DNA of 64,000 nt, taken from assembly GCA_963833425.1 (NCBI GenBank), contig CAWHXP010000005.1, forward strand, positions 32,001 through 96,000, written 5' to 3'. Below are positions 18,071 to 42,126 of this stretch, one piece after another. Below the pieces are notes generated by a model that worked only from the letters and a program-made list of their open reading frames with translations, was not told where the DNA came from and made no database searches. The stretch is from an uncultured Methanosarcinaceae archaeon (GTDB lineage Archaea > Halobacteriota > Methanosarcinia > Methanosarcinales > Methanosarcinaceae). Each line of letters starts with the position of its first letter. Within the stretch, counting starts at the first letter, position 1. Position numbers and translations under genes: made by a program.

Positions 18071-21000
18071 TTAGTCTGATTTCTCAAATGAAAAAAAATG
18101 CATTTTACCAAGAGAATCACCTGCAACAATAGACTCACCATTCGGTGAAATGCAGCAGGCTAGAAACGGACTATCCCCTGTAAAATTAGAGATGATTATC
18201 CCTTGTTCCAGATCCCATACCTTGAGTGTTTTATCGCTGGAAGCTGAAATTGCATACCTTCCATCACGTGTGATTGCAACCGCATTCACCCAATTATCAT
18301 GTCCCTTTAGTGTTGTTTTTTCTTCTCCCCTTTCCAAATTCCATATCTTGAGTGTTTTATCATCGGAAGCTGAAACTGCATACCTTCCATCACACGTGAT
18401 TGCAACTGCATTCACCCGATAATCGTGTCCCTTTAGTGTTGTTTTTTTCTCTTCTCTGTTCCGATCCCATATCTTGAGTGTTTTATCGTCGGAAGCTAAA
18501 ACTGCATATCTTCCATCATGCGTGATTGCAACTGCATTCATCTTAGAAGAATATCCCTTTAGTGTTGCTTTTTCTTCTCCCCTTTCCAGATTCCATACCT
18601 TGAGTGTTCTATCGTAGGAAACTGAAACTGCATACTTTCCATCAGGTGTGATTGCAACTCCACGCACCCGACCATCATGTCCCCTTAGCGTTGTTTTTTC
18701 CTCTCCCTTTTCCAGATCCCATACCTTGAGTGTTTTATCTCCGGAAGCTGAAATCGCATACTTTCCATCACGTGTGATTGCAACTGCATTCACCCAATCA
18801 TCATGTCCCTTTAGTGTTGTTTTTTCCTCTCCCCTTTCCAGATTCCATACCTTGAGTGTTTTATCGCTGGAAGCTGAAACTGCATACTTTCCGTCAGGTG
18901 TGATTGCAACTGCATTCACCCGATAATCATGTCCCTTTAGTGTTATTTTTTCCTCTTCCTTTTCCAGATCCCATACCTTGAGTGTTTTATCGCCGGAAGC
19001 TGAAACTGCACACCTTCCATCACGTGTGATTGCAACTGCATTCACCCGATAATCATGTCCCTTTAGTGTTGTTTTTTCCTTTCCCCTTTCCAAATTCCAT
19101 ACCTTGAGTGTTTTATCTCCGGAAGCTGAAATCGCATACTTTCCATCACGTGTGATTGCAACTGCATTCACCCAATCATCATGTCCCTTTAGTGTTGTTT
19201 TTTCCTCTCCCTTTTCCAGATCCCATACCTTGAGTGTTTTATCTCCGGAAGCTGAAATCGCATACTTTCCATCACGTGTGATTGCAACTGCATTCACCCA
19301 ATCATCATGTCCCTTTAGTGTTGTTTTTTCCTCTCCCTTTTCCAGATCCCATACCTTGAGTGTTTTATCTCCGGAAGCTGAAATCGCATACTTTCCATCA
19401 CGTGTGATTGCAACTGCATTCACCCAATCATCATGTCCCTTTAGTGTTGTTTTTTCCTCTCCCCTTTCCAGATTCCATACCTTGAGTGTTTTATCGCTGG
19501 AAGCTGAAATCGCATACTTTCCATCACGTGTGATTGCAACTGCATTCACCCAATCATCATGTCCCTTTAGTGTTGTTTTTTCCTCTCCCTTTTCCAGATC
19601 CCATACCTTGAGTGTTTTATCATCGGAAGCTGAAATCGCATACTTTCCATCACGTGTGATTGCAACTGCATTCACCCAATCATCATGTCCCTTTAGTGTT
19701 GTTTTTTCCTCTCCCATTTGCAAATTCCATATCTTGAGTGTTTTATCGCTGGAAGCTGAAATCGCATACTTTCCATCACGTGTGATTGCAACTGCATTCA
19801 CCCAATCATCATGTCCGTCAAGAGTTCTAATCAACGATCCTCCTGGTGATTTCAAGGAACAAGTTCTTGGAAGTAATCTGATACCATCTTGACATTCACA
19901 TGCTTGACCTAGTAATGTTTGTATCCCCTCTTCGTGAAAACTAAGGAGACGTCCTAGAAGTTGTCCTGCAAGCTGAGTTTCATTTTTTATTAAAGCATTA
20001 TATGAAAGTTTAATTGCACTTTGTACAAGCCTTATTTCAGTATCATCGAGTAGGTAATCGTAATCATGGATAAGAGAATTTATGTTAGGTATTTTGATAC
20101 CCGTTTTGTCATTTCTAACGGTCACATGCTCCAATTTGGTGTGCATCCATTCAAAGTTTAAAAGAAGCATATGAAGTTCTTCTTTTCTTCCAGCTTCTTT
20201 CATGTGGTATGCAAGATGCTCGAAGAAGTACCCATCATTAGGGCCCGTACTCCACTTATTTTTACAATCTTTAGGATATGCTTCTAGCAACTGATTGTGA
20301 AGGCTTGTTAAATCACGTGTTGTAGCTCTCAGGTAATCAAGTTGCAGGTCATGAAGAGATATAAAGCGATGAGGTGCTTCACCATCTAGTCGCAGAAGAG
20401 ACATCTCTTTCAATTTAGATATCAATTTCCCAGAATTGCGCTTTTTTAAATTTCCAGTATGTGCCCAAAAAATCGCAATTGTAGCTTCAGGTACAGGTTC
20501 ATCTGTAGGAAAAATCGCCAGTTCCTGATAACGCTTTACTGCATCTGAATCTTCACTTGAAAGAAAGTCGAGACTGACTTTAAATGCTTTCATCACATTG
20601 GAATTTGGATAGTTTGGCAATTGAGCTTCAATAAATTCAAGATCAGCTTCTTGTAAAGCCTCCAAAATATCTAACCATGATATTCCACTTTTAGCCATCG
20701 CTCCACACATGGATAGAGCGAGTGGCAGGTATCCACATTCCCTTGCCACTCCTTTTGCTTCCGATGGCAATAAGTTTACATCCTTATCATACCAATTTGC
20801 TAGAAGCTTCAAAGCTTCAAGTTCGCTGAATGTTTTAATCTTGTGTTCCTGAGCTCCAAGTGAGGTAACAACATTATTGTTTCTTGTGGTAATAAGCAGT
20901 TTACACATTTTACCTAAAGCATTAACAAAAGGCACTGCATCTTGAACTTTCCAAACGTCGTCAAGTATAATGAGGCATGTTTTATTAGAAAGTACCTTTG

Positions 21001-21973
21001 AAAGACTCGCTTCAGCTTCCTTTTGGCTGCTGTAATTTGCAGGATCATCGCCAAATTCTCTACCGACTAACTTCAAGCCCCCTATAAGATCAGGATTCTC
21101 TAAACCTACAGTAACCCAGAATATCCCATCATGAAAAGCGTCGCGAGCTTCTCTACTTTGGGCAAGGGCTGTGGATAATACGGATTTTCCCATTCCTCCC
21201 ATACCTTGAAGTGAGTTTATCTGCTTTGCAGATGTGATTGCTGCAGATTTTGTGAAATCAGCCAGCATCAACTCTTTTATTTTCTTAAGATCTTCTGTTC
21301 GAGATAAATAATGAGGAGGTAGTGTAGGTACTCCAACAATTGGAGCAAGATGCTCAGATAGAAACTCAAAAATACTGAGGTCAAATGAATGCTCTTTGCA
21401 AACATTTAATATCGAATCAATAGGACTAAAGCCACCTGACAATATGCCTGTAGCTGTCTCCTTATAAACAACTATTCCTACGATATCGTTTAGTTTAGCG
21501 TCGAAAACCGGAGTACCGCTAAATCCTCCTTCAATATTATACCCGATAAACTTAGAAACGTCAATCTGAACGAAGTCAGGATAAGCCCTCCCTCTCCCTA
21601 ATACTGAGACCCACTCTGCTTTATCTCCATATGGAAAACCGCATACTTTGAGTTCTCGATCCCAGAAATCATCTGTGAGCATAAGCTTTCCTATACTGGC
21701 ACATGAAGGAGCTTCATCTTCAAGCTTAAGAATAGCAAAGCCATATTCTGTGTTTTGCGACCAAAAGAAAATGTGAGATTTTAGAACTTTATTTGGCTCA
21801 TCAAGATAAAAAGTCAGATATATCTCATCGCCTATTTTAGCATTTGGCGAAACATCATTGACTACGTGCCTGCAAGTAAGTATCCACCTTTTCCCAATTA
21901 GAAATCCAGCACCTTGTGCGTCCCTGTTCTTATCTAGAACTTTGACTATTGAGGACTCTGGTAAATGATTCAT
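18071..21973 (-). CDS. Trypsin-like peptidase + NB-ARC (STAND) NTPase + WD40 repeats (Apaf-1-like NLR)
   Basis: LTCRHVV and GGFSGTPV; Walker A GMGGMGKS, Walker B LIILDDVW, LPLAL, LHDL; 13 near-identical plus one divergent WD40 repeat. Confidence 0.93.
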   Translation of the reverse strand: MNHLPESSIVKVLDKNRDAQGAGFLIGKRWILTCRHVVNDVSPNAKIGDEIYLTFYLDEPNKVLKSHIFFWSQNTEYGFAILKLEDEAPSCASIGKLMLTDDFWDRELKVCGFPYGDKAEWVSVLGRGRAYPDFVQIDVSKFIGYNIEGGFSGTPVFDAKLNDIVGIVVYKETATGILSGGFSPIDSILNVCKEHSFDLSIFEFLSEHLAPIVGVPTLPPHYLSRTEDLKKIKELMLADFTKSAAITSAKQINSLQGMGGMGKSVLSTALAQSREARDAFHDGIFWVTVGLENPDLIGGLKLVGREFGDDPANYSSQKEAEASLSKVLSNKTCLIILDDVWKVQDAVPFVNALGKMCKLLITTRNNNVVTSLGAQEHKIKTFSELEALKLLANWYDKDVNLLPSEAKGVARECGYLPLALSMCGAMAKSGISWLDILEALQEADLEFIEAQLPNYPNSNVMKAFKVSLDFLSSEDSDAVKRYQELAIFPTDEPVPEATIAIFWAHTGNLKKRNSGKLISKLKEMSLLRLDGEAPHRFISLHDLQLDYLRATTRDLTSLHNQLLEAYPKDCKNKWSTGPNDGYFFEHLAYHMKEAGRKEELHMLLLNFEWMHTKLEHVTVRNDKTGIKIPNINSLIHDYDYLLDDTEIRLVQSAIKLSYNALIKNETQLAGQLLGRLLSFHEEGIQTLLGQACECQDGIRLLPRTCSLKSPGGSLIRTLDGHDDWVNAVAITRDGKYAISASSDKTLKIWNLQMGEEKTTLKGHDDWVNAVAITRDGKYAISASDDKTLKVWDLEKGEEKTTLKGHDDWVNAVAITRDGKYAISASSDKTLKVWNLERGEEKTTLKGHDDWVNAVAITRDGKYAISASGDKTLKVWDLEKGEEKTTLKGHDDWVNAVAITRDGKYAISASGDKTLKVWDLEKGEEKTTLKGHDDWVNAVAITRDGKYAISASGDKTLKVWNLERGKEKTTLKGHDYRVNAVAITRDGRCAVSASGDKTLKVWDLEKEEEKITLKGHDYRVNAVAITPDGKYAVSASSDKTLKVWNLERGEEKTTLKGHDDWVNAVAITRDGKYAISASGDKTLKVWDLEKGEEKTTLRGHDGRVRGVAITPDGKYAVSVSYDRTLKVWNLERGEEKATLKGYSSKMNAVAITHDGRYAVLASDDKTLKIWDRNREEKKTTLKGHDYRVNAVAITCDGRYAVSASDDKTLKIWNLERGEEKTTLKGHDNWVNAVAITRDGRYAISASSDKTLKVWDLEQGIIISNFTGDSPFLACCISPNGESIVAGDSLGKMHFFSFEKSD
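18180..19815 (-). repeat. 126-bp tandem repeats encoding WD40 blades
   Basis: 13 units of 42 aa, several identical or nearly so at DNA level. Confidence 0.95.
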
Positions 21974-21982
21974 TCAAAAGCC

Positions 21983-22309
21983 TCATGCCGTTTTCCAAGA
22001 AAGAGTGACCTTAAAATTTGCCTCAACGCTTGTAGTTGCAATAAAGGCTCCAGCTTGCGCATTCATTATGATCCCAAACTCAACCCCTATACAATCAGGC
22101 TTACTGCTTAGACTCTTTAGTCTCTGTACAATAACGTCTGCAGCAGGCCTGATGACATCCAGAGCTTTTTCAAATTCTTTTGTTGCTTCTTCAGGCACTC
22201 CTGACGGTCTAGAAACAGGAGTCCGACCTCTTTCGGATTCTGTTTCCTCTACTTCAATTAAAACAGCTCCACCCTCTTCAAGGTTATATTTCACAAGTTT
22301 CTTAGTCAC
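21983..22309 (-). CDS. Trypsin-co-occurring domain 1 (Trypco1) protein
   Basis: FEKALDVIRPAA...PDCIGVEFGI...EANFKVTLSW pattern; ends 9 bp before the trypsin-domain gene. Confidence 0.85.
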   Translation of the reverse strand: MTKKLVKYNLEEGGAVLIEVEETESERGRTPVSRPSGVPEEATKEFEKALDVIRPAADVIVQRLKSLSSKPDCIGVEFGIIMNAQAGAFIATTSVEANFKVTLSWKTA

Positions 22310-25354: not shown

Positions 25355-25696
25355 TTAGGAGTGCATTTTTAAGGTGGGGTATCCTTCATAACAGTTATTG
25401 CATAACACAGTCACAGTAGGACTTTTACCCTTTTGTCGGATCGTTTTTATCATTCCACATTTTTCTAACTCGTTCAATGCTGTCGGAAAAGCCCAATCAG
25501 GGATAGGTAAAAGGGAATTTATACCTTTCAAGGTGACTACTAAATTTGTAGATTTTTTAATACCTTTTAAGTGCCAAATGTACATAGCCACCCTATAAGT
25601 ATGCCCAACTGAATTTGAAGGTAGCTTCACAATCCATTCTAAAGGCAATTGGGGTATGAAGTATCCTTTTATTTTATCTCTAGAATTTACTAACAT
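25355..25696 (-). CDS. Winged-helix protein, second copy of 35767-36135
   Basis: Nearly identical protein and DNA at an offset of 10439 bp. Confidence 0.8.
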   Translation of the reverse strand: MLVNSRDKIKGYFIPQLPLEWIVKLPSNSVGHTYRVAMYIWHLKGIKKSTNLVVTLKGINSLLPIPDWAFPTALNELEKCGMIKTIRQKGKSPTVTVLCNNCYEGYPTLKMHS

Positions 25697-25797
25697 GATT
25701 TTACCCCATCTAATATTATTTCTAAATGATAAGAGTAAATAAATAAGAAATATAAAGAAATATAAGTAGTAAAAACATTATCCGAAGGCTTTAGAAT

Positions 25798-25880
25798 TTA
25801 GCTGTGTAGCTAATTAATTTTAGCTGTAGAGCGAAATATATTTTGCTGTGCAGCTAATTAATATTGCTCTGTAGCTAAAT
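25798..25880. repeat. Iteron-like 21-22-bp repeats (copy 1)
   Basis: ttagctgtgtagctaattaatt / ttagctgtagagcgaaatatat / tttgctgtgcagctaattaat / attgctctgtagctaaat. Confidence 0.8.
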
Positions 25881-25921
25881 TCAAAGTGTAGACAAAACAG
25901 ATTATTGGAACTATTCTGCTT

Positions 25922-26012
25922 TCAGCTTCCTTCTTCTTTAATTTCTCCTAAAATCTCCATAATCAAATGCCACTTTTCTGCACCCTTCTCATCTATATAC
26001 CTATCAGGATAA
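25922..26012 (-). pseudogene. C-terminal fragment of a second family A DNA polymerase allele
   Basis: YPDRYIDEKGAEKWHLIMEILGEIKEEGS* versus YPERYIDEKGAETWNLIMRILKEVKQE* in 36388-38157. Confidence 0.85.
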
Positions 26013-26099
26013 AGATCGTATTAAAAATACCTTTGATAATTACATGAACAAGTTCAAACCTTATTTATCAAAAACCATTTGAAGCATCTAGAGCAAAAA

Positions 26100-26116: not shown

Positions 26117-27543
26117 TGGTGATGATAGCTACCTTAAGACGCTGAATATATCAATAGTGGATTTTTATTCTATTAAAATTTGATTGAGTTTAGAAAGTCA
26201 AGATTAACGAATTAATGACTCATTAGATTCTCGATTCACAGCAAACTTCGTTAGAATTTGTTGTCTTATTTCATTTATTTCTGCCATAAAGTCTTACAGA
26301 CTGAAGCCAGATATACTCAGGACTGTCTAATACCTTCAGGCAAAATATATTGCAAATCCAGGTTTATGAAACCGATCTCTGAACTCACAAATGAAATGTA
26401 CCTGGATTATGTAGGCTCATGATAATTAATAAAATGACATTTTTCCGCTTCAGGAAAGCTCTGGCTCAAATATGAACGAGTATAGGGCGATTCGAGGCAT
26501 TTTCTTGAGAAGTTAATTAAAACTATTAACTAGATGGAAAAAAACCCCATGATAGGGCTTAAAATAAGCCAGTTTTTGTCAATCCGTTAGCAAAACATGG
26601 GACAAAGTCAGCAATTTAGTCCAAACTAATCAAAAAGTAAATGAAATCTCATGTTGATTTAGAGAATCTGGAGAAGCCTGTTAGTCAACCATCACCTATT
26701 TGCTCTCGTAAACCCTAAGTAAGTCCAAGATATAGCTAATAATAATTTTTATTACTTTATTAATATAATAGGATATTGAACGCATTTAGTTTAAATTGTA
26801 TTAGATATACTTCTTTATCTGAAATAAAGATGATCCATTTATATAAAAACTAAACTATAACTCCAGATTAAAAAGTGGTTATTACAGATTTTTCATCCCT
26901 GTGACTACTAATCAGGTCCAAAATTAACATTTTATGCAACTATATTTCAAAAATTAAGATCAAACATAATCAAGGACCGTTATTTTCGGTTCGGTCAATG
27001 GGATGCGGTGACAAAAAACAAATTAGTTCATTACTTCCAGTTTTGGATAATAAGCCTAATAACAAAAATAAGTGGAGCGGAAGGATCAAAAACTTTATTT
27101 GCTCAATGTTGTGACAATACTTCTCATTGAATTTAGCTATTATCATAGACATCCCAATACCTTGCAGTAGACTTCGTACCTTTAAATCATAAATTTTAAT
27201 AAATGGTAGTAAAGTCTTCCTTATAAAAAATAAATATAATTTATAAAAATCAGATAAAATAAATATTGAATTTGTTCTATTGCCTGAAAATAAGGCAATC
27301 ACATAGTCAATAAAATATATTTTAAAGTTGTAAAATAAATTTTTGACTTTCTAAAATTTAGTATCTATTCAGATAAATTTATGTATTTACTTGATTATGT
27401 ACTCAAAATTCCAAAATGGAAATCTTTATTTTATTAGCTAGGGATATCTCATTTATCTTTTATCTCAAAATTTTGATCTTAGAGCTAAAATGGTGAACTG
27501 TTGTGATAAAACCCAACTTTTGTACCAGAAAGCCGGAGAAGTT

Positions 27544-27900
27544 TATTTATTCGAATTTTTTAATTCTTCAAGATTTCTCTCACAAAAATCAATTCGTCTA
27601 AGATCTTCAATTTTTCTATCCATTTTTATTGCCTGTTCATAATACTCAATTGCTTTTATTGTCTCTCCCAAATCTCTATACGCGTTTCCCAGATTACCAA
27701 GGTGAATTCCTTCTGCGTCCCTATTTCCAATTTCTTTAGCAATTTTGAGTGCTTGTTCATAATACCCAATTTCTTTTTTCGTCTCTCTCAGAGCACTGTA
27801 TGCATTCCCTAGATTTCAAAGTTGATTTCCTTCATTAAGTCTATCACCTATTTATCTTGCAATTTTTAGTGACTGTTCAAGATAATTTATTGCTTTCCTC
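27544..27900 (-). pseudogene. Orphan TPR 3'-end cassette 1
   Basis: EGIHLGNLGNAYRDLGETIKAIEYYEQA...IEDLRRIDFCERNLEELKNSNK*; homologous to 34700-35050; contains frameshifts. Confidence 0.85.
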
Positions 27901-28734: not shown

Positions 28735-29069
28735 TACTATTTTTCTCGGTTATGAGACTAATTAATTTTCAAATTGTGATAAACATATTGATTTTGTAAC
28801 AAAGCCAAATTTTTTGCACCAAAAATCAGCAAGTTTATTTTTTCTAAATTTTTAATTTCTCAAGATTTCTCTCGCAAAAATCAATTAGTCGGGAATCTTC
28901 AATTTCTTTAGCAATTTTGAGTGCCAGTTTATAATATCCAATTGCTTTCTTTGTCCTTCCAAGATCATTGTATATTATTCCCAGATTTCCAAGGCATTTC
29001 CCTTCTCCTTTCTTACCCCCAATTTCTTTAGCAATTTTGAGTGACTGTTCATAATACTCAATTGCTTTT
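28735..29069 (-). pseudogene. Orphan TPR 3'-end cassette 2 plus 3' flank
   Basis: KAIEYYEQSLKIAKEIGGKKGEGKCLGNLGIIYNDLG...IEDSRLIDFCERNLEKLKI*; homology to 34820-35150 includes about 100 bp of non-coding DNA. Confidence 0.85.
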
Positions 29070-29104
29070 ATAAGATAGCATCATTATTTTGTAGGAGATA
29101 AACT

Positions 29105-29410
29105 ATGGAGAAAATTGGATTGGTAGAGACGATAGAAGCCTTGCGGTCAGAGTTATCTGCGGCGGTAAAGAAAGCCCAAGGACAAGAGATTCAGTTTCCG
29201 ATAGGTTCAGTACAACTGGAGTTCCAGGTAGGAGTGACATGGGACGCAGAGACTAAGGGTAAAGTCAAGTTCTGGGTATTGGAGTTAGGAGCGAGCGGCA
29301 AATATGCAAACGAATCGGTCCAGAAGGTCACTCTTAATCTTGAAGCCCCAGTGAACACTGAGGGAAATATAGTGAAAGTGACAGAACATTCGCGACAGAG
29401 ACCGAGTTAG
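29105..29410 (+). CDS. Trypsin-co-occurring domain 2 (Trypco2) protein
   Basis: IGLVETIEALRSEL...VQLEFQV...VKFWVLELG...QKVTLNL pattern; RBS GGAG; directly upstream of a trypsin gene. Confidence 0.85.
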   Translation: MEKIGLVETIEALRSELSAAVKKAQGQEIQFPIGSVQLEFQVGVTWDAETKGKVKFWVLELGASGKYANESVQKVTLNLEAPVNTEGNIVKVTEHSRQRPS

Positions 29411-29422
29411 GGAGGGTAGATA

Positions 29423-30823
29423 GTGTTAGCAGGGCTGAACAGTCGAGCCGTTGAAGTTATCTATGAAGGGTGTGACGAAAACGGACATTTCTGGGAGGTA
29501 GGTTCTGGGTCCTTCGTTCGCCCTAATCTGGTGCTTACTGCCTCGCACTGTATTCCCGGCCCGGGCAAATTAAGAGTGCGTCTTCTCTACGACGGAAAAA
29601 AGTACCCTGCGACAGTGCGCCTGCAAGCTGACAAAGACAACGCAGATTTAGCAGTACTCGAAGTTTCTAATGTACCAGTGGAAGTCCCTGTTCTACGATT
29701 TGGAGAGGTAAATCGGAATATATCAGGGAAAGTGAAGGAATGTATAGCAATTGGCTTCCCCAGGTTCAAAGATATCGAAGATAAATCTAAGGTACTGCGT
29801 TGCAGTGCCCAAGTCGAGGGGGAGATCCCAACCGGAGAAAATTTTCGCCAGCCCATTCTTACGCTACAGATAACAAACAAGAATCCACGATCACTACCTG
29901 ATAACAAATCGGAATGGGCAGGGATATCTGGGGCAGTAGTATACTCGAGCAATGATACTATCATAGGTGTGATAACTGAGCATCATCTCCCGGAGGGTGA
30001 GAGTGCGTTAAACGTTGTGCCAATTACGGCCATCGATGGTCTAGATGAAGCGGGGAAATGGTGGCAGTTACTAGGTGTGAACCGTCAAGCACTCGTAAGT
30101 CTGCCGAAAATTATAGGCAATGTTACAGGCAAGCTAGCTACTGGGAAATATATCAATCAAATTGTGATAAAAGAGCCATCAGTAGAGGCATTAGTTAAAC
30201 AGATGGACTTTTTAGAACAAAAAGAAGAAAGTTTTGATTTATTTTTAAGCTATTTACACTTAGATGATGAGTTTGTTGACAAATTGTCCTGGTTGCTCGA
30301 AAATATTGCCTACTTAAGGGTATTGCATGACAGATGGATTATTTTGCCTGAAAAATGGCAGCAAGAAATACCTCGTGGATTCGAACTCACAAAATCTTGT
30401 GCAATATGTATCGGAGGGGAAACCCCCGAAGGTTGGTTTAGAGACGAGATTGAACTGGCTATCAGTCACCAAAGTGAAGATAAAGCATTCAGAGTTATTC
30501 CAGTGTTATTGCCCAATGCTCAAGAAATAAGTCTTGATGATTTCCCTGAGTTAAGAACTTTGGTGGACTTTAGGAATGGTTTGGAAGATACTAAAGAATT
30601 GCATCGTCTAGTTTCCGGGATACGCGGTGTGCCGCCAGGAAGAAAGCCTTCGGAAATTGTGATACAAGAACCTGATATTGAACCTGATATTAATAGAGCT
30701 CGTAAGCAATTAAGGATAATTGAACAACTGAGCTTTGAATTTAAGGCTATTTTCTCTCAAAAGCTAGTGGATGAGAGTGTTCGTAAGATAGTAAAAGTAA
30801 ATGTGTTAATGAAAAATAGGTGA
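29423..30823 (+). CDS. Trypsin-like serine protease fused to a C-terminal TIR domain
   Basis: Triad motifs LTASH, DLAVL and GISG; TIR motifs FDLFLSY, WFRDEIELA and RVIPVLL. Confidence 0.9.
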   Translation: MLAGLNSRAVEVIYEGCDENGHFWEVGSGSFVRPNLVLTASHCIPGPGKLRVRLLYDGKKYPATVRLQADKDNADLAVLEVSNVPVEVPVLRFGEVNRNISGKVKECIAIGFPRFKDIEDKSKVLRCSAQVEGEIPTGENFRQPILTLQITNKNPRSLPDNKSEWAGISGAVVYSSNDTIIGVITEHHLPEGESALNVVPITAIDGLDEAGKWWQLLGVNRQALVSLPKIIGNVTGKLATGKYINQIVIKEPSVEALVKQMDFLEQKEESFDLFLSYLHLDDEFVDKLSWLLENIAYLRVLHDRWIILPEKWQQEIPRGFELTKSCAICIGGETPEGWFRDEIELAISHQSEDKAFRVIPVLLPNAQEISLDDFPELRTLVDFRNGLEDTKELHRLVSGIRGVPPGRKPSEIVIQEPDIEPDINRARKQLRIIEQLSFEFKAIFSQKLVDESVRKIVKVNVLMKNR

Positions 30824-30827
30824 CTCA

Positions 30828-33800
30828 ATGGCAGACACCAAGTACAAGTATGATGTATTTCTGAGCTATTCAAGATCTGATGTGAATTCAGTTGAAAAAG
30901 TTGCGAGCTATCTCAGTGATGCAGGACTGAACGTCTGGTTTGATGAATGGTCACTGGTTCCAGGTCAGCAATGGGAGGCATCTTTAGAGGAAGCTTTTGA
31001 TAGTTCGCTTACAATCGCTGTTTTTGTAGGTCCTTCATCGTTAAGTAATCAGCAACAACTGGAGTTGAAAGAAGTCCTTAATAAGCAGATGAACGGTGCA
31101 GTTCATAGGGTCATACCTATCCTACTTCCTGGATCCAGTATAGATTTTATCCCTTTACCCCTTCGCAAAATATGCGCTTTAGACCTTCGTAAAGGTCTTG
31201 AGACAAAACGCGAGCTAAATGAACTTGTTAAAATGATTACCGAATATAAAACCGTAACCTATGGCACTGGACTAACAACAGGTCGCGATGTTTCCATAGG
31301 TGATGTTACCGGCCAGCTAGCTATTGGGAAATATATCAATCAAATTACTATAAAAGAGCCTTCTGGAAAGGCGTTAGTTGAATTAATAGCTTATCTGGAA
31401 CAAGAGAGAAATAAAGAAGAAAATCTTAAAATTTTAAACAGCTATAATCCTTCTGTCCTTCCTTATTTTGACCCTAGACTAAAAGAATTTGTTACCACAA
31501 ACAGAGTGGAAGAATTAAGCCAAGCTCTCGTATATCTTCAGGATCACAGGCTTTTACTTTTTACTGGATTAGGTGGAGTTGGAAAGACTACTCTTGCAAG
31601 AGCCATTATTGATATAAGACCAGCTAATGTACCTATTCCTTTCTGGTTTGATTTCAGTCAAAATCAGAGTGCCAAACTAGGGGATATTCTCGAAAAACTC
31701 GCAGCATATATGAATTCTCGAGATTTAGTAGGATTCAAAGAGGAAAAACGAGAGCCAGAAAAAAAGGATATTGATAAACTCATAGACAAATTAAATGTAG
31801 GAAACCCAGTATGGCTTATTTTCGACAACTTGGAAACTATAATGGATGACATTTATTTCCAAGATGAATATATAGATCTATTTTTTACTTGTTTGTTTAC
31901 CAACACTTACCAGATAAAGATCATTATAACGAGTAGAACTGTTCCAATGTTAAAAAATGAAGAATGCTTAATTAACGTAATAGAAGGAGATAAACAGAAT
32001 GTTGGGGGTTTGAAGACTAATTTTGCAGTTGAATATCTCGCCAAAAACGGGCTTGCTAATATAGAACTTTATAAGCTTGAAGAACTTGCCAAAGGAGTTG
32101 ATGGACATCCTCTGGCTCTAAAACTTCTTGTAGAATTAGTAAAGAAATTTGGAGAAGAAGATACCATAGAGGATCTAAATATATATCAGGAACAAAAACA
32201 GGACACAATATTAAAAGCGAGAAAGCTCTTTGACAAACTAGTAGGGAAAGAAAAAGCTCTAGTTGAGCGTATTTCTGTCTATCGTGAGCCTGTGAAGATA
32301 GAAGGGCTTAAAGAGATGTTTATGGAGAAGACATCTTTAACTGATATTCAAAGGCTTAGGAATAAGTCACTATTAGAAACTGATCTTAGTGGTAAGTATT
32401 GGCTTCATCCTCTGGTACAAGAGTTCTCTTACTACGACCTTGAAAACAAAAAAGAAGTACATAAGCTTGCAATGAATTATTACCTTTCTCTATCTATTCC
32501 TGAAAAGCCTGTAAAAAAAGAAGATATCCAGTCTCTTATTGAAGCACACTACCATGCCTACACGGCAAAAGAATACGATCAGGCTTTCAACATCATATTT
32601 GACAATAAATTGAATGAATATCTTGATCTCTGGGGCAATTATACAGTACTTATTGATCTCTACTCAAAATTATTGCCAGATAATCATTTTAAAACCGAAA
32701 TTCTTCTGAAAGATAAAGGAAGTCATGGTATAGTCCTTGGGAATCTAGGGCTAGCATACCGTGATCTTGGAGAGATAAGGAAAGCAATTGAGTATTATGA
32801 ACAAGCACTCAAAATTGCTAAAGAAATTGTGGATAGGCAAGATGAAGGAATTTGGCTTGGAAATCTGGGGAGTGCATACAGTGATCTAGGAGAGACGAAA
32901 AAAGCAATTGAGTATCTCGAACAAGCACTAGAAATTGCTAAAGAAGGAGACAGGAAAAATGAAGGAATTTGGCTTGGAAATCTAGGGAATGTATACCGTA
33001 ATTTGGGAGAGACGAGAAAAGCAATTGAATATCATGAACAGGCACTAGAAATTGCTAAAGAAACTGGAGACAGGAAAAATGAAGGAGGTCAACTTGGAAA
33101 TTTGGGGAACGCTTACTATAATTTGGGAGAGACTAAAAAAGCAATTGAGTATTTAGAACAGGCACTAAAAATTGCTCAAGAAATAGGAGACAGGCAAGGA
33201 GAAGGAGCAGACCTTGGAAATATGGGGAACGCTTACTATAATTTGGGAAAAACGAAAAAAGCAATTGAGTATTACGAACAGGCACTAAAAATTGCTCAAG
33301 AAATTGGGTACAGGCTAGGAGAAGGAATTTGGCTTGGAAGTCTAGGGAACGCATACAGTGTTCTAGGAGAACAGAAGAAGGCAATTGAGTATTCTAAACA
33401 GGCACTAAAAATTGTTCAAGAAATTGGGTACAGGCAAGTAGAAGGAACTTGCATTGGAAATCTTGGGAATGCATACAAGGATCTTGGAGAACCGAGAAAC
33501 GCAATTAAATATTATGAAAAAGCACTCAAAATTGCTCAAGAAATTGGGGATAGGCAAGGAGAAGGAACAGACCTGGGAAATCTGGGGTTAGTATACAGTG
33601 ATCTAGGTGAGACTAAAAAAGCAATTGGATATTACGAGCAGGCATTGCTAATTTCAAGAAAAATAGGTGATAGACGCGGAGAAGGAACTTGGCTTGGGAA
33701 TCTTGGAAACGTTTACAGACAACTGGATAAGATTACAATAGCAATTGAATATTACAAGCAGGCACTAGAAATTGCTCAAAAAATTGATGATAGACGAGGA

Positions 33801-34892
33801 GAAGGTGCAGCTCTTGGAAATCTGGGGTTAGTATATAGTGATCTAGGTGAGATTAAAAAAGCAATTGAATGTTATGAGCAGACTTTGCTAATTTCAATAG
33901 AAGTAGATGATAGACGCGGAGAAGGAATCGCTCTTGGAAATCTGGGATTAGTATATAGTTATCTAGGTGAGATTAAAAAAGGAATTGAACATTATGAGCA
34001 GGCATTAAAAATTTCGAAGGAAGTGGGGAATAGACACGCTGAAGGTGCGATTCTTGGAAATTTGGGGAATGCATATAGCCAAGTTGGTAAGATTACAACA
34101 GCACTTGAATATTACGAGCAGGCTTTGCTAATTTCAAGAGAAATAGGTGATAGACGCGGAGAAGGAAATCGTATTGGAAATTTGGGGTTAGTATACAGTG
34201 ATCTGGGTAAGGTTACAACAGCAATTGAATATTACGAGCAGGCTTTGCTAATTTCAAGAGAAATAGGTGATAGACGCGGAGAAGGGACTTGGCTTGGAAA
34301 TCTAGGGCTAGCATACTCTAATTTGGGAGAACCGAAAAAAACAATTGAATATTTTGAACAGGCATTCAAAATTGCTCAAGAAATCGGGGACAGGCAGGTA
34401 GAAGGAACTTGCATTGGAAATCTTGGGAATGCATACAGTGATCTGGGAGAGACAAAAAAAGCAATTGAGTATTATGAACAGTCACTCAAAATTGCTCAAG
34501 AAATAGGGGACAGGCAAGGAGAAGGAATTTGGCTTGGAAATCTAGGGAGAGCATACTATAATTTGGGAGAGACGAAAAAAACAATTGAATATTTTGAACA
34601 GGCATTCAAAATTGCTCAAGAAATAGGGGACAGACAAGTAGAAGGAACTTGCATTGGAAATCTTGGGAATGCATACAGTGATCTGGGAGAGACAAAAAAA
34701 GCAATTGAGTATTATGAACAGTCACTCAAAATTGCTCAAGAAATTGGGGATAGGCGAAATGAAGAAGTTTGGCTTGAAAATCTGGGGAAAGCATACAAGG
34801 ATCTTGGAGAGACGAAGAAAGCAATTGAATATCATGAACAGTCACTCAAAATTGCTAAAGAAATTGGAGGTAGGCGAAATGAAGGAACTTGA
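30828..34892 (+). CDS. TIR + STAND (NB-ARC-like) NTPase + TPR repeats (NLR-like)
   Basis: YDVFLSYS and RVIPILL; GLGGVGKT, LIFDNLE, GHPLAL, LHPLV; 18 TPR units of about 40 aa; ends at a TGA where neighbouring repeats have TGG or TGC. Confidence 0.93.
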   Translation: MADTKYKYDVFLSYSRSDVNSVEKVASYLSDAGLNVWFDEWSLVPGQQWEASLEEAFDSSLTIAVFVGPSSLSNQQQLELKEVLNKQMNGAVHRVIPILLPGSSIDFIPLPLRKICALDLRKGLETKRELNELVKMITEYKTVTYGTGLTTGRDVSIGDVTGQLAIGKYINQITIKEPSGKALVELIAYLEQERNKEENLKILNSYNPSVLPYFDPRLKEFVTTNRVEELSQALVYLQDHRLLLFTGLGGVGKTTLARAIIDIRPANVPIPFWFDFSQNQSAKLGDILEKLAAYMNSRDLVGFKEEKREPEKKDIDKLIDKLNVGNPVWLIFDNLETIMDDIYFQDEYIDLFFTCLFTNTYQIKIIITSRTVPMLKNEECLINVIEGDKQNVGGLKTNFAVEYLAKNGLANIELYKLEELAKGVDGHPLALKLLVELVKKFGEEDTIEDLNIYQEQKQDTILKARKLFDKLVGKEKALVERISVYREPVKIEGLKEMFMEKTSLTDIQRLRNKSLLETDLSGKYWLHPLVQEFSYYDLENKKEVHKLAMNYYLSLSIPEKPVKKEDIQSLIEAHYHAYTAKEYDQAFNIIFDNKLNEYLDLWGNYTVLIDLYSKLLPDNHFKTEILLKDKGSHGIVLGNLGLAYRDLGEIRKAIEYYEQALKIAKEIVDRQDEGIWLGNLGSAYSDLGETKKAIEYLEQALEIAKEGDRKNEGIWLGNLGNVYRNLGETRKAIEYHEQALEIAKETGDRKNEGGQLGNLGNAYYNLGETKKAIEYLEQALKIAQEIGDRQGEGADLGNMGNAYYNLGKTKKAIEYYEQALKIAQEIGYRLGEGIWLGSLGNAYSVLGEQKKAIEYSKQALKIVQEIGYRQVEGTCIGNLGNAYKDLGEPRNAIKYYEKALKIAQEIGDRQGEGTDLGNLGLVYSDLGETKKAIGYYEQALLISRKIGDRRGEGTWLGNLGNVYRQLDKITIAIEYYKQALEIAQKIDDRRGEGAALGNLGLVYSDLGEIKKAIECYEQTLLISIEVDDRRGEGIALGNLGLVYSYLGEIKKGIEHYEQALKISKEVGNRHAEGAILGNLGNAYSQVGKITTALEYYEQALLISREIGDRRGEGNRIGNLGLVYSDLGKVTTAIEYYEQALLISREIGDRRGEGTWLGNLGLAYSNLGEPKKTIEYFEQAFKIAQEIGDRQVEGTCIGNLGNAYSDLGETKKAIEYYEQSLKIAQEIGDRQGEGIWLGNLGRAYYNLGETKKTIEYFEQAFKIAQEIGDRQVEGTCIGNLGNAYSDLGETKKAIEYYEQSLKIAQEIGDRRNEEVWLENLGKAYKDLGETKKAIEYHEQSLKIAKEIGGRRNEGT

Positions 34893-35164
34893 CTTGGAAA
34901 TCTGGGGCTAGCATATAAGAATCTGGGAGAACGAAGAAAACAATTGGGTATTATAAACAGGCACTAAAAATTGCTCAAGAAATTGAAGATCCCAGAATAA
35001 TTGATTTTTGTGAGAGAAATCTTGAGAAATTAAAAATTCGAAAAATAAACTTCTCTGGCTTATGTGCAAAAAATCAGTCTCTGTTACAAAATCGGTGTAG
35101 ACCATCACAATTAAGAAAGTTAATTAATCTCATAACTGCGAAAAATATACAAAACGAGACCCTT

Positions 35165-35526
35165 CTTCAGACTACCACCATTTGGGAATGATTGCGCAGG
35201 AGCGTCAGAAGTTTGAAGAGGCTGAAGAATTGTATAGAAAAGCGCTGGAGATTTTTGAACGTTTGGGGCTTGAAAGATACGCGGCTGCAGACTACCACCA
35301 ATTAGGAATTGTTGCACAGGAGCGTCAGAAGTTTGACGAGGCTGAAAAATGGTATAGAAAAGCGCTGGAGATGTATGAATGTCTGGGGCTTGAAAGAGAT
35401 GCTGCTACAGGCTATCTTCATTTGGGAATGATTGCGCAGGAGCGTCAGAAGTTTGACGAGGCTGAAGAACTTTATAGAAAAGCTCTAGATATTTTTAGCA
35501 GATCAAAGTCGAAAATAACTAGATAG
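35165..35526 (+). pseudogene. Fragment of an unrelated TPR family (3 repeats)
   Basis: YHxLGMIAQERQKFDEAEE repeats; no proper start. Confidence 0.7.
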
Positions 35527-35766: not shown

Positions 35767-36135
35767 TCATTTCCTATTCATTATTACTACTTCTCCATGA
35801 TCGAAATTTAAAGTGGGATATCCTTCATAACAATTATCACATAACACAGTCACAGTTGGACTTTTACCGCGCTGTCGTATAGTTTTTATCATTCCACATT
35901 TTTCTAACTCATCCAATGCTCTTGGAAAAGCCCAATCAGGGATAGGTAAATGTATATTTATATCTTTCAAGGTGACTACTAAATTTGTAGATTTTTTAAT
36001 ACCTTTTAAGTGCCAAATGTACATAGCCACCCTATAAGTATGCCCAACTGAATTTGAAGGTAGCTTCACAATCCATTCTAAAGGCAATTGGGGTATGAAG
36101 TATCCTTTTATTTTATCTCTAGAATTTACTAACAT
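35767..36135 (-). CDS. Winged-helix DNA-binding protein (candidate origin-binding protein)
   Basis: RALDELEKCGMI helix followed by a beta-wing; adjacent to the iteron-like array. Confidence 0.75.
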   Translation of the reverse strand: MLVNSRDKIKGYFIPQLPLEWIVKLPSNSVGHTYRVAMYIWHLKGIKKSTNLVVTLKDINIHLPIPDWAFPRALDELEKCGMIKTIRQRGKSPTVTVLCDNCYEGYPTLNFDHGEVVIMNRK

Positions 36136-36236
36136 GATTTTACCCCATTTAATATTATTTCTAAATGTTAAGAGTAAATAAATAAGAAATATAAAGATAT
36201 ATAAGTAGTAAAATCACTATCAAAAGGCTTTAGAAT

Positions 36237-36343
36237 TTAGCTGTGTAGCTAATTAATTTTAGCTGGAGAGCGAAATACATTTTGCTGTGCAGCTAATTAA
36301 TATTGCTCTATAGCTAGATTGGAATTTGGCTCTACAACTAAAT
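36237..36343. repeat. Iteron-like 21-24-bp repeats (copy 2), candidate origin
   Basis: Four to five units of the tt(a/t/g)gct-N4-agctaa type beside an AT-rich tract at 36160-36215. Confidence 0.8.
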
Positions 36344-36387
36344 AGAAAAGTCTGTCCAGGGTTTTTGAGTCTTATTTACGATGTTTT

Positions 36388-38157
36388 TTACTCTTGTTTT
36401 ACTTCTTTGAGTATCCGCATAATAAGATTCCAAGTTTCTGCACCTTTCTCATCTATATACCTTTCAGGATAACGAACAATACCGGCATCTGTTTTCAATC
36501 TGTTACCAGCACCTAGAACAATTTCAGATGCATCACACATCAGCTTTCTCGCTATCTCTATCTCTTTGTCTGCCGCCTTTTCATCGCACTCAATCATCAC
36601 TGCATCGTGAACTGGAGCAACAATTTTAATTTTATTTTCCGAGAGAAGGATGCATGCCACTCTAAGAATTTCAGCTCCAGTAGCTTGAATTGGGAAATTT
36701 CGGACGGTCAACATTTCCTTGTTGCTGGAGCCTGAAACAATCATTTTCCATTTATAGCAGGTTTCAATCCTTTTCATCAAACAGGCTTGAGTCCAGGTCA
36801 TATCTACCCAACGCCAGTAAATTTTAAAAATTCTTTTATGATGACTAAGCAGTTCCTTTGCATAAGGTGTAGGCTTACCAATTTTAAATCCAAGTGATTC
36901 TGCACCCAAGCCATACTGGACACCAAGTACACAAGATTTAAAGAGTTGTCTCGCACTGCCATGCGTTTCTTTTGTAGCGTCTGCTGGAACTGCACCTGCT
37001 AATTTTGCAAAAGCCAGATACGGATCCCCACTTTTATATGCCTCAATCATATTAGGGTCCTTAGAGAGAATTGCTGCAATAAAAAACTCTTGTTGTGAAT
37101 AATCAATATATGCAAGCACTTTTTCCTCAGTCGGTTTTATTAGACTTCTCAGACTAGCAGGAAGTCCAAACATAAACCGAACTCTTAATTCTCCTCTATT
37201 CTTTTTCTCCTCGTCATCCTTTGGGGCATTTCTACCTGTCTTAGTCCAGTAGGGAGAGATTAAAGTTCGACTTCTGCCATCTGAACCAGCCACTATAGAC
37301 TTAAAGTTTAGCCCACCAATAAGAGTTTTTAATTCCTTCAAAGGCCCTATTTCAGGATGGATTTCTGCCATTTCCTTGAATGTTTCCTTATCGGTTTTTG
37401 GCAGACCAGTGTCAGTTCTCGGCCACGCCCAATTGTTGACTTGAATAAATCTCTCAAAATTATTTATTTTAAAACTGGTTCCTTCGTAAATTCCAAATTT
37501 GTCAATATTTTTTATCAGTTTAAATTTTATTTTTTCCCAGTTTTCTTGCAACTCTTGAAGTAGATCGGTATCTATTGGTATACCAGTATATTCGATTTCA
37601 GCCACAGATTTCATATACTCCCCCCGATAGAGAGAAGTGGGTATGTCGAAATCAGGGACCATAATCATTCGTTTGAATAACTCGGCTGTTTCAAGTACGT
37701 CAGATTCGCAATAACTCATAATATATTCTTGATCTTCTTCAGAGTAAGGAGCTCCAGCTAAAATACGATCTCTGGCAGCATCTTTCTCCACTTTGCTAAT
37801 AGTCTCTATGCCAAAAGCTTTACAGGCATCCAGCAGGTTTGCACCTCTTCGTTCATAAGAATGATTAGAAAAGCACCTGTACTCTACGAATGAATCAATT
37901 ACATTGAATGGTAAAGGCCAGCTTAAGACCAGGTGGCACCCCCACTCTGCTGAACTCATATGAGCAACAAATAAATCATTTTCACCTATTGAGTAGGGCG
38001 GCTGATGATTGCTTTCTTCGAAAAGCCACAGTCTTTTAGTTTCTCCAGAAATTATTTCATGGGAAACAACACAAACAGGTATTGGACGTTCGCTAGGCTT
38101 TGCGATAAATTCAAAATCAATCACATAAATATGATTAAAAAATGATAGGGGGAGCAT
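36388..38157 (-). CDS. Family A DNA polymerase with 3'-5' exonuclease domain and no 5'-3' nuclease
   Basis: ExoI IDFEF, ExoIII YCESD, motif A DYSQQE, motif B RQLFKSCVLGVQYG, motif C VHDA. Confidence 0.92.
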   Translation of the reverse strand: MLPLSFFNHIYVIDFEFIAKPSERPIPVCVVSHEIISGETKRLWLFEESNHQPPYSIGENDLFVAHMSSAEWGCHLVLSWPLPFNVIDSFVEYRCFSNHSYERRGANLLDACKAFGIETISKVEKDAARDRILAGAPYSEEDQEYIMSYCESDVLETAELFKRMIMVPDFDIPTSLYRGEYMKSVAEIEYTGIPIDTDLLQELQENWEKIKFKLIKNIDKFGIYEGTSFKINNFERFIQVNNWAWPRTDTGLPKTDKETFKEMAEIHPEIGPLKELKTLIGGLNFKSIVAGSDGRSRTLISPYWTKTGRNAPKDDEEKKNRGELRVRFMFGLPASLRSLIKPTEEKVLAYIDYSQQEFFIAAILSKDPNMIEAYKSGDPYLAFAKLAGAVPADATKETHGSARQLFKSCVLGVQYGLGAESLGFKIGKPTPYAKELLSHHKRIFKIYWRWVDMTWTQACLMKRIETCYKWKMIVSGSSNKEMLTVRNFPIQATGAEILRVACILLSENKIKIVAPVHDAVMIECDEKAADKEIEIARKLMCDASEIVLGAGNRLKTDAGIVRYPERYIDEKGAETWNLIMRILKEVKQE

Positions 38158-40794: not shown

Positions 40795-42126
40795 TTACTT
40801 TTCATTTTTAAGCATGGCCTCCTTTAATGTTGAAATTTCATCAAGCTCCCTTTTTAATTCGTTCTTCATTTCCCATATTTTTTCAAGATCTGCATATTGC
40901 ATATAGTCAGCTTTGATAGATTCGGTGGCTTTCATGTTTTCTATCTCTGCCTTGAGTTCCTGCAGTTCAGATCTTTCGTCTTTTCTTTCCTGTGTCATAA
41001 TGTCAGTAATTCGCTTGTATGCATCTTTATCTTCCTTCATTTGAATGAAAGCGGGGTGCTCCGTAGGATCGATTGATTTTTCAATAGTTAGATATGAGAT
41101 ATATTTTGTATACTCTTCCTTCAATTTCTCAGGGGAAGCTCTATAATATGCCTCGTGTGTCGCATCCAATTGGTGCCCGAGCAGGAAATCCACAAAAAAT
41201 AAACTGGCATGTTCATTGAGTAACGTGGTATTAAAGAATCTCCTCATATTATGTGATCTGTTGATATTATATTCACCACTTCCTGAACTGGTCTGAGCTT
41301 CTTCATTCAGTCTATGATAAATTGATATTATCGTTTCTTTACTTAGCTTTCTGAGCTCTTCTTTATCTTTCATTTTCTTAGCTGTCAGATATTCAAAAGG
41401 CACAGCCCTGGTGACAAACAAATATCCTTCTTTAGTAGTAACACGTTGTTTTTCGAGTTGTTGCTCTTTTATTTTGCTTTTATAATTAGGCTCCCTATTT
41501 CGCCAATTAAGATAATCCTGAATTGCTTTTGAAGCTTCGGGAGATAAGAAAGTATAGAACTCATAGTTTTTCTTTTTTCTGACAAGGTGTAGCGTTGTTA
41601 TGCCTGTCTTTGGGTCATAACCATCTACGAAATCACTAACTCTAAGATTGGAGATATCCACAGCACTCAATCCACTACTGACGCCCACTAACACAAGAGC
41701 ACGCTCAAGGGGATCACAAACATTAAGGATTTTTCTTATATCATCCTTAGTTGGTATTTTCTTTCGTTTTAATTCCGGTCTTGCATTTGTCGTGCCTTTT
41801 GGGAGTACTGGCAACTGAATATTATACAATCTATAGAATGAGCATACTCCAGTCATTCTGCTTTTAATAGTCAGTGGAGCAATATCTTTTCTCTCCAAAT
41901 GTTCTCTAAACTCTCGGAGATAACTGGTTATATTTCTCTCACGCATCAAGAGTCCAGCGCGAATCTCTTTTTCGGCTTCTTCTATAAGCTGTAATGGCGT
42001 GTTATGGGTGAACTCAGTAAATTGCTGCATTGATTGCAAATACACCCTTCTTGTTTCATAAGCCGCTTTGATTCCGGATAGCCAATCCTTAATTATTTTG
42101 TCGTTCTTTAACTCATTAACTTTCAT
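40795..42126 (-). CDS. Tyrosine recombinase / integrase
   Basis: SSGL..DISNL, HNMRRFF, LLGH and catalytic Tyr region (HEAYY); C-terminal coiled coil. Confidence 0.93.
   Translation of the reverse strand: MKVNELKNDKIIKDWLSGIKAAYETRRVYLQSMQQFTEFTHNTPLQLIEEAEKEIRAGLLMRERNITSYLREFREHLERKDIAPLTIKSRMTGVCSFYRLYNIQLPVLPKGTTNARPELKRKKIPTKDDIRKILNVCDPLERALVLVGVSSGLSAVDISNLRVSDFVDGYDPKTGITTLHLVRKKKNYEFYTFLSPEASKAIQDYLNWRNREPNYKSKIKEQQLEKQRVTTKEGYLFVTRAVPFEYLTAKKMKDKEELRKLSKETIISIYHRLNEEAQTSSGSGEYNINRSHNMRRFFNTTLLNEHASLFFVDFLLGHQLDATHEAYYRASPEKLKEEYTKYISYLTIEKSIDPTEHPAFIQMKEDKDAYKRITDIMTQERKDERSELQELKAEIENMKATESIKADYMQYADLEKIWEMKNELKRELDEISTLKEAMLKNEK

Follow-up and report, generated by a model that had tools for sequence, protein, structure and literature searches.

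How might a NOD-like receptor (NLR) gain control of a protease that is encoded as a separate protein? The question is raised by three tightly spaced + strand genes in a stretch of DNA from an uncultured Methanosarcinaceae archaeon (contig CAWHXP010000005.1). The whole stretch of 64,000 nt was examined and is called the window below; all positions are those of this stretch. In operon order, the genes encode Trypco2 (a Pepco protein), a Trypsin-motif-TIR effector and a TIR-motif-NB-ARC-TPR receptor (domains according to Pfam), with gaps of 12 nt between Trypco2 and the effector and 4 nt between the effector and the NLR. The motif in question is a short peptide present once in the effector and once in the NLR, and on balance we think it probable that it is a homotypic coupler between NB-ARC-TPR receptors and separately encoded effectors in Methanosarcinales and anaerobic methanotrophic (ANME) archaea.

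Pepco proteins (Trypco1/2) form beta-barrels that become toxic once a trypsin-like protease removes their C-terminal tail, and this protease is typically fused to a STAND sensor (bioRxiv 10.1101/2025.11.14.688446; here and below, statements on cited work refer to the accessible parts of the sources). A fused counterpart lies on the minus strand of the same window at 18071-22309, where Trypco1 (21983-22309; PF19493, E 1.1e-25) is directly upstream of a Trypsin-NB-ARC-WD40 protein of 1300 aa (18071-21973). A six-frame profile scan found no motif copy in this fused system. The operon studied here encodes its protease separately from the sensor; apart from a TIR domain of 32% identity, the motif is all that the protease protein has in common with the NLR. 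The operon logic calls for a coupler, because the Pepco-activating trypsin is usually fused to a STAND sensor and here is not. Since the motif is the only specific feature that the separate protease has in common with the NLR, it is proposed that oligomerised NLR motifs recruit or template the motif core of the effector.

The shared peptide and its family

The effector gene (29423..30823, +) encodes 466 aa, with Trypsin_2 at aa 27-183, the motif at aa 231-266 and TIR_2 at aa 274-396, followed by a conserved C-terminal tail. The NLR gene (30828..34892, +) encodes 1354 aa, with TIR_2 at aa 10-133, the full motif at aa 142-192, NB-ARC/nSTAND at aa 225-440 and then a TPR array (Pfam). The initial annotation had reported a 36-aa motif shared by the two proteins, placed between trypsin and TIR in one and between TIR and NTPase in the other. 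Both translations were found exactly as quoted, the Pfam assignments agree with the placement, and the peptides are identical at 25/36 aa (85/108 nt at the DNA level), each in frame within a long open reading frame (ORF), the two ORFs being adjacent. The effector copy (30113..30220, +) consists of a beta-type core (30113-30181; IGNVTGKLATGKYINQIVIKEPS) and an amphipathic helix part (30182-30220). The NLR copy (31296..31403, +; aa 157-192) is likewise made up of a core (31296-31364, aa 157-179) and a helix part (31365-31403). It is preceded by the G/T/V-rich TVTYGTGLTTGRDVS (31251..31295, +; aa 142-156), a prelude that the annotation had also described and that corresponds to GGxGITAGGDVS of the family consensus in a profile alignment of 68 family rows, i.e. 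to the first half of the family motif. The effector copy reads GKLATG where the NLR copy reads GQLAIG, a difference already pointed out.

When the effector was compared with the NLR by BLASTP, the motif formed a separate high-scoring pair (30/50 identical, E 1e-12), while the TIR domains were 32% identical (43/134), in line with the greater divergence that the annotation had noted for the remainder of the two proteins, TIRs included. The 108-nt pair was recovered independently by a repeat finder (direct repeat D9, 79%), and a six-frame profile scan of the window gave no third copy beyond these two. That the 108-nt repeat reflects an RNA or DNA element was considered and rejected, since each copy is read in frame within a long ORF and the peptide has been conserved across 50-odd proteins. 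Recent splitting of a single gene at the effector/NLR boundary was also rejected; the C-terminal tail of the effector ends where homologous TIR modules end.

The family consensus is approximately KKVxGGxGITAGGDVxIGDVSGQVAIGxxIxQ, a module of ~33 aa rich in Gly, Ile, Val, Gln and Asn, after which the amphipathic helix comes in the NLR subtype. Motif fragments matched no Pfam family at E<=1 and NCBIfam likewise gave nothing past the NTPase start; an ESM Atlas look-up of NLR aa 141-205 yielded no usable match, and PDB sequences matched the motif profile at chance level only (best E 0.17). Word search with the effector fragment returned the query itself and nothing else (1 match among 21 candidates), and word search with the NLR fragment (aa 141-200) returned 8 proteins among 188 candidates, all of NB-ARC/nSTAND type. 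In all 8, the motif is the extreme N-terminus, directly before the NTPase at fixed spacing and with no TIR ahead of it. Searched against 1.84 billion representatives, the motif profile gave 60 matches at E<=1e-3 (16 at <=1e-10), from which 7 were excluded as unrelated repeats (long proteins with 6-18 weak matched stretches each). The motif starts within the first 25 residues in 47 of the 53 credible matches; at less than 100 aa, 23 of the 53 may be fragments.

Pfam was run on 25 of the profile matches and assigned NB-ARC/nSTAND to 8, TIR_2 to 1 (P0018), COR-A/COR-B to 1 (P0041), TPR to 1 (P0028) and no family to 14. Taken together with the related loci described below, the partners of the motif are NB-ARC, reached through two junction types (the second, with a different linker, in P0027, P0034 and P0057), TIR_2 (P0018), TPR (L002:826-1746 and P0065), a zinc ribbon plus TPR (P0028) and a four-helix domain. 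In P0056, Trypsin_2 stands before the motif and NB-ARC after it, and in P0041, a Roc-COR-type protein of 374 aa, COR-A/COR-B stands before the motif region (aa 234-271). Given its presence on this last protein, the module may not be confined to NB-ARC receptors. Judged from its distribution among sequences, the motif is a mobile module, carried by NLRs and at least five other architectures.

A single genome scan gave four loci from 13 pattern matches, in two Methanosarcinales metagenome-assembled genomes (MAGs), in ANME-1 GoMg2 and in Ca. Methanogaster. Further candidate effector/NLR pairs, for which the annotation had suggested a profile search, were thereby found: in all four loci a protein of ~138 aa with an N-terminal motif is encoded directly upstream of an NLR (small-protein genes L001:1016-1444, L002:256-675, L003:30-449 and L004:2450-2866). 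The motif profile matched the NLR in three of the four (L001-L003); the L004 NLR carries an additional domain at its N-terminus, and its diverged, internal motif was missed by the profile and recognised by eye only. L002 additionally encodes the motif-TPR protein. Members of the ~138-aa family have the N-terminal motif, a predicted four-helix bundle and a hydrophobic C-terminal tail; they belong to no Pfam family and weakly match the PADLOC candidate PDC-M14B (E 2e-7). Such a protein may be a tail-anchored membrane effector, with a polarity opposite to that of Bell/HeLo proteins. No protease gene was seen in the four loci, which are on short contigs.

Origin of the effector copy

The initial annotation had cautioned that the match could be a domain-shuffling scar. 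In this reading, a P0056-like Trypsin-motif-NB-ARC gene recombined with a TIR module, and the half-motif and helix are a functionless leftover linker in the effector. The architecture of the effector agrees with the first part of it. Effector aa 1-277 align with aa 1-290 of P0056, a Trypsin-motif-NB-ARC-TPR protein of 767 aa (48% identity, E 9e-75); the alignment begins at residue 1 of the effector, runs through the same trypsin-motif junction (ALVSLP-x-x-IG) and stops exactly at LEQK. From KEES on, the effector is a TIR-plus-tail module that occurs motif-free on the trypsins P0072 and P0080 and on the coiled-coil proteins P0089 and P0091. Effector aa 231-363 are also collinear with the motif-TIR protein P0018 (28% identity, E 9e-14), and in 19 of 54 effector homologues the trypsin module ends in WWxLLG and is joined straight to varied sensors. 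Neither of the two trypsin-fused copies (window effector and P0056) has the first half of the family motif, which also suits a scar. On these alignments the effector is a mosaic. Because its trypsin, half-motif and helix match the N-terminus of P0056, the motif copy was probably inherited with the trypsin from a trypsin-motif-NLR ancestor by domain shuffling, and then kept or homogenised. The source label of P0056 is an Ignavibacteriales (bacterial) MAG (2.5-kb contig), yet the NLR part of the protein shares 59% identity with the archaeal window NLR, which could reflect mis-binning or inter-domain transfer.

Codon comparison of the effector and the NLR bears on the second part, the loss of function. 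In the 23-codon core, the proportion of synonymous differences (pS) is 0.29 and that of nonsynonymous differences (pN) 0.10, with a dN/dS of ~0.28; pS and pN are 0.77 and 0.23 in the 13-codon helix part, and 0.78 and 0.48 in the TIR domains. Synonymous sites are thus saturated in the helix part and the TIRs and unsaturated in the core. Of the 25 identical motif residues, 19 use the same codon, while in the TIRs 17 of 43 do so (Fisher p = 0.005). Among 28 core pairs drawn from the window and from L001, L002 and L004, the window pair is the most similar, with 59/69 nt (next 54 and 53) and a pS of 0.29 against 0.44-1.12, and the effector core is nearer to that of the adjacent NLR than to that of P0056, its closest trypsin relative. 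This suggests a short, recent homogenisation of the 69-nt core between the two adjacent genes.

Unsaturated synonymous sites would be compatible with a recent shuffling event as well. However, because the synonymous similarity stops at the 69-nt core and the adjoining helix part is saturated, a short conversion tract is indicated rather than one recent breakpoint. Moreover, the effector has retained that part of the family motif which is best conserved, the dN/dS of the core and its closeness to the NLR rather than to P0056 do not suit a dead linker, and a scar would leave the NLR control of a separate protease unexplained. The caution was therefore justified as to how the copy was probably acquired, from a P0056-like gene, and less so as to what became of it; that the copy is a functionless scar we regard as rather unlikely.

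Predicted structure and known motif families

AlphaFold2 (AF2) models were obtained for a small protein (15-row alignment) and for NLR aa 1-560 (20 rows). In the small protein, aa 1-41 have a predicted local distance difference test value (pLDDT) <50 and no secondary structure, and aa 46-132 form four helices with pLDDT 86-91; a Foldseek search of PDB with this model gave nothing at E<=1e-3, and otherwise only four-helix bundles of a generic kind. The NLR model has a mean pLDDT of 56, with aa 132-175, which contain most of the motif core (aa 157-179), <50 and mostly coil, and a helix at aa 180-205; the motif is not docked on NB-ARC. With pLDDT <50 in both the small protein and the NLR, the models do not place the motif within a folded domain. 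A complex prediction with three NLR motif fragments and one effector motif fragment, run with alignments and no controls, gave a score of 0.15 (mark 0.32), which speaks neither for nor against binding.

These models also bear on a second alternative, in which the motif acts within the receptor molecules of this NLR clade, as an N-terminal latch or an NB-ARC-docking strand that tunes oligomerisation, and the copies elsewhere are decoys or regulators. The fixed position directly before the NTPase in 8/8 of the closest NLR-fragment matches, the persistence of the motif in the all-in-one P0056 and in the window NLR, and the post-motif helix that runs into the NB-ARC region would all fit such a role. 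Yet four-helix, TPR, TIR, zinc-ribbon and COR proteins carry the core although they have no NTPase, AF2 leaves aa 132-175 of the NLR undocked, and the second junction type (P0027, P0034, P0057) links the core to NB-ARC by a different linker. The annotation had named an occurrence of the motif only as a folded part of the NTPase N-terminus as fatal to its proposal; the motif is not confined in this way, and we consider a purely intramolecular role improbable. More improbable by far is that the motif is a recognition or cleavage site of the trypsin-like protease of the operon, freeing the TIRs from both proteins: it does lie between two domains in both window proteins, proteolytic effector release is a theme of Pepco-type modules and the trypsin of the operon appears to have a His/Asp/Ser triad, but the motif is extreme N-terminal in 47 of 53 family members, where cutting would free nothing, no protease gene was seen in the four related loci (short contigs), and the reported Pepco cut lies in a charged, proline-rich tail unlike the motif (bioRxiv 10.1101/2025.11.14.688446).

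The composition of the core was calculated from 62 of the 68 family rows against a crude background of fetched proteins >300 aa. Gly (2.8x), Ile (2.6x), Gln (1.8x), Val (1.4x) and Asn (1.4x) are enriched, and Leu (0.18x), Pro (0.15x), Arg (0.19x) and Lys (0.59x) are depleted. On direct reading, the core consists of 3-4-residue aliphatic/polar alternations split by glycines, like those of beta-arch or beta-solenoid formers.

The annotation had called the motif RHIM- or BASS-like. The core of the receptor-interacting protein homotypic interaction motif (RHIM) is an (I/V)-Q-(I/V/L)-G tetrad. By reading, this tetrad is absent from both peptides, and the Pfam scan of motif fragments returned no RHIM family; the likeness to the RHIMs of RIPK1/RIPK3 and ZBP1 consists in a short, beta-forming signalling motif with Gln between aliphatic residues (INQI).

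Likeness to bacterial amyloid signalling sequences (BASS) goes further. BASS and fungal amyloid motifs are enriched in Gly, Asn, Gln, Val and Ile and depleted in Lys, Pro and Leu (Dyrka et al. 2020, bioRxiv 10.1101/2020.01.06.895854), and the composition of the core fits this bias. As with BASS1-10 and the fungal motifs (HET-s/HRAM, PP, sigma), a short motif precedes the nucleotide-binding domain of an NLR and recurs in the protein encoded by the adjacent, collinear gene, which lies a few bases away (same source). Such a pair, on the NLR and on the adjacent gene product, is present in the window and in L001-L003, and in L004 with the NLR copy seen by eye only. Again as in BASS, the motif is predicted to be unstructured beside a folded effector domain. 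The setting is also similar, since the motif occurs in Methanosarcinales, and for aggregate-forming members of this order Bell domains, NLRs and two unclassified motif pairs have been reported (Dyrka et al. 2020, bioRxiv 10.1101/2020.01.06.895854). Unlike in BASS systems, the effectors here are not Bell domains, and the motif is retained in all-in-one proteins. HET-s/HRAM has two 21-aa pseudorepeats with a flexible loop between them, whereas the effector here has a single copy of the distal half only. In a string search, GQVAIG, GQLAIG and GITAGG were absent among the BASS sequences listed in the accessible part of the PMC8086366 supplement; shorter motif strings were found, by string search only, mainly in clusters C02, C06 and C09 among the sequences listed, of which C09 is compositionally similar. 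The label is supported for composition, whereas the missing Pfam match and the absence of the hallmark strings among the listed BASS sequences lend membership no support.

A second set of known modules comprises the effector-associated domains EAD1-11 (Kaur, Burroughs, Iyer, Aravind 2020, PMC7159879), of which, as here, one copy is on a core NTPase and others are on varied effectors, often encoded by the adjacent gene. The motif shows the same pattern of one small module on the NTPase and on diverse, often adjacent effectors. Adjacent EAD copies are closer to each other than to other copies (PMC7159879), and so is the window motif pair. Whereas each EAD is a small globular domain of alpha or alpha+beta type for which there is a Pfam model, the motif has neither a Pfam match nor a confidently predicted fold. 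Trypco1/2 were defined as trypsin partners in the same work (PMC7159879). The window operon further resembles the Pepco-protease modules on Avs/STAND sensors (bioRxiv 10.1101/2025.11.14.688446), in that the Trypco2 gene is directly upstream of a trypsin-like protease, a STAND NTPase is in the operon and Trypco2 has a C-terminal tail past its domain. It differs from them in that the STAND sensor lacks the fused protease, which is on a separate, TIR-bearing protein, and in that the sensor has a TIR of its own, a shared motif taking the place of the covalent link.

The coupling model and its genomic setting

That a short matching motif couples the NLR to the effector encoded next door, as initially proposed, is supported by the modularity of the motif, its adjacency to NLRs in 4/4 loci, the lack of a predicted fold, its composition and the operon logic. 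The same coupling logic has been described for effector-associated domains (PMC7159879) and for amyloid motifs (Dyrka et al. 2020, bioRxiv 10.1101/2020.01.06.895854). We infer the following order of events, including binding, templating and protease activation. Once the TPR sensor is triggered, NB-ARC would oligomerise and bring together several NLR copies of the otherwise unstructured motif. The clustered motifs would associate with the matching core of the Trypsin-motif-TIR protein, or template it, through beta-strand stacking, possibly of an amyloid-like kind. The trypsin domains, concentrated and activated in this way, would clip the C-terminal tail of Trypco2/Pepco and release a membrane pore, and the TIR domains of the effector and the NLR would be clustered into an active assembly.

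Several observations weigh against homotypic coupling or depart from the classical scheme. The annotation had placed the motif N-terminal to the NTPase with a matching effector copy; the NLR placement is as described, but the effector copy of classical BASS systems is C-terminal, and here it is internal (window effector, aa 231-266 of 466) or N-terminal (small proteins, aa 1-41). The window effector carries the distal half of the family motif and not the first half. The motif profile matched none of the 54 other effector homologues, and P0072 and P0080, which are closely related Trypsin-TIR proteins, do without the motif. Because the trypsin-motif junction is common to the all-in-one P0056, the effector copy may be a mere inherited linker. 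All-in-one forms (P0056 and the window NLR with its own TIR) keep the motif between the fused effector domain and the NTPase, which is unexpected if recruitment in trans is its only role. In L001 and L002, the cores of the NLR and its neighbour (36/69 and 38/69 nt) are no closer than those of unrelated pairs, so pair matching is not a general rule, and the high codon identity in the window could reflect recent rearrangement instead of selection. Binding between the two copies gave no confident model, and low pLDDT is weak evidence of disorder because the alignments are shallow (15-20 sequences).

The Trypco2 gene (29105..29410, +) encodes 101 aa with the Pfam domain PF19631 at aa 4-80 (E 1.5e-26) and a charged, proline-containing C-terminal tail of 21 aa past the domain, and its product is a predicted protease-activated pore effector. 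The apparent triad of the effector trypsin, read from alignments as His42, Asp75 and Ser169, is in the expected contexts and is kept in homologues. Glu342 of the effector TIR, invariant among aligned homologues, is in a W-x-x-x-E context and is presumably the catalytic glutamate of that context. The TPR array of the NLR (32664-35000) consists of ~17 head-to-tail units of 120 nt (40 aa) each, with mutual identity of up to 83%. Just beyond the NLR stop, three 120-nt units of another TPR type (35153-35512) are found in a 114-aa ORF (35182-35526), possibly a truncated neighbouring gene. On the 5' side of the operon, two non-coding stretches (27539-27900 and 28831-29073) with no long ORF are 70-88% complementary to the NLR TPR units and resemble what would be left of an inverted TPR array after decay.

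The window as a whole is a segment of an archaeal chromosome and carries 3-dehydroquinate synthase II, TruD and SRP54; the NLR has its nearest relatives in Methanosarcina and Methanosarcinales. Direct repeats ~10.4 kb apart (25368-26015 and 35807-36475; 300 nt at 93% and 84 nt at 79%) flank the NLR operon; duplicated in them are a 113/122-aa ORF and the terminal part of a gene for a family-A DNA polymerase. Next come polA (36388-38157) and a phage-type integrase (40795-42126), both encoded on the minus strand. Because of the bracketing repeats, polA and the phage-type integrase, the NLR operon may sit in or beside an integrated element. A pentapeptide-repeat protein of 378 aa (15062-16198, +) is encoded in the same variable region as both NLR systems.

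Activation of neighbouring effectors by NLRs through short motifs is established in fungi and filamentous bacteria. For archaea, the accessible literature holds a bare mention of two unclassified Methanosarcinales pairs (Dyrka et al. 2020, bioRxiv 10.1101/2020.01.06.895854), which may or may not be this motif. New here are the definition of an archaeal motif family that can be searched for and that has many partner architectures, its presence in Methanosarcinales, ANME-1 and ANME-2, and its tie to a Pepco-protease death module in which the usual covalent fusion of sensor and protease is missing. A bolder form of homotypic coupling, which we put forward tentatively and hold to be less likely true than false, is an archaeal cross-beta (prion-like) signalosome, in which an activated NB-ARC-TPR oligomer nucleates the ~33-aa motif and templates the same motif on several executioners. 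These would be, in this operon, the trypsin that unleashes the Pepco pore together with the TIRs, and elsewhere the four-helix protein with its hydrophobic tail and the TPR and TIR proteins. Should this prove true, the motif would represent a new family of amyloid signalling motifs with N-terminal or internal rather than C-terminal placement, the first such motif wired to a protease cascade, and one kept matched to its partner by short gene-conversion tracts. The three genes and two peptides of 50 aa make up a testable system for homotypic templating, amyloid-like or other, in archaeal immunity, and for the activation of a protease by this means.

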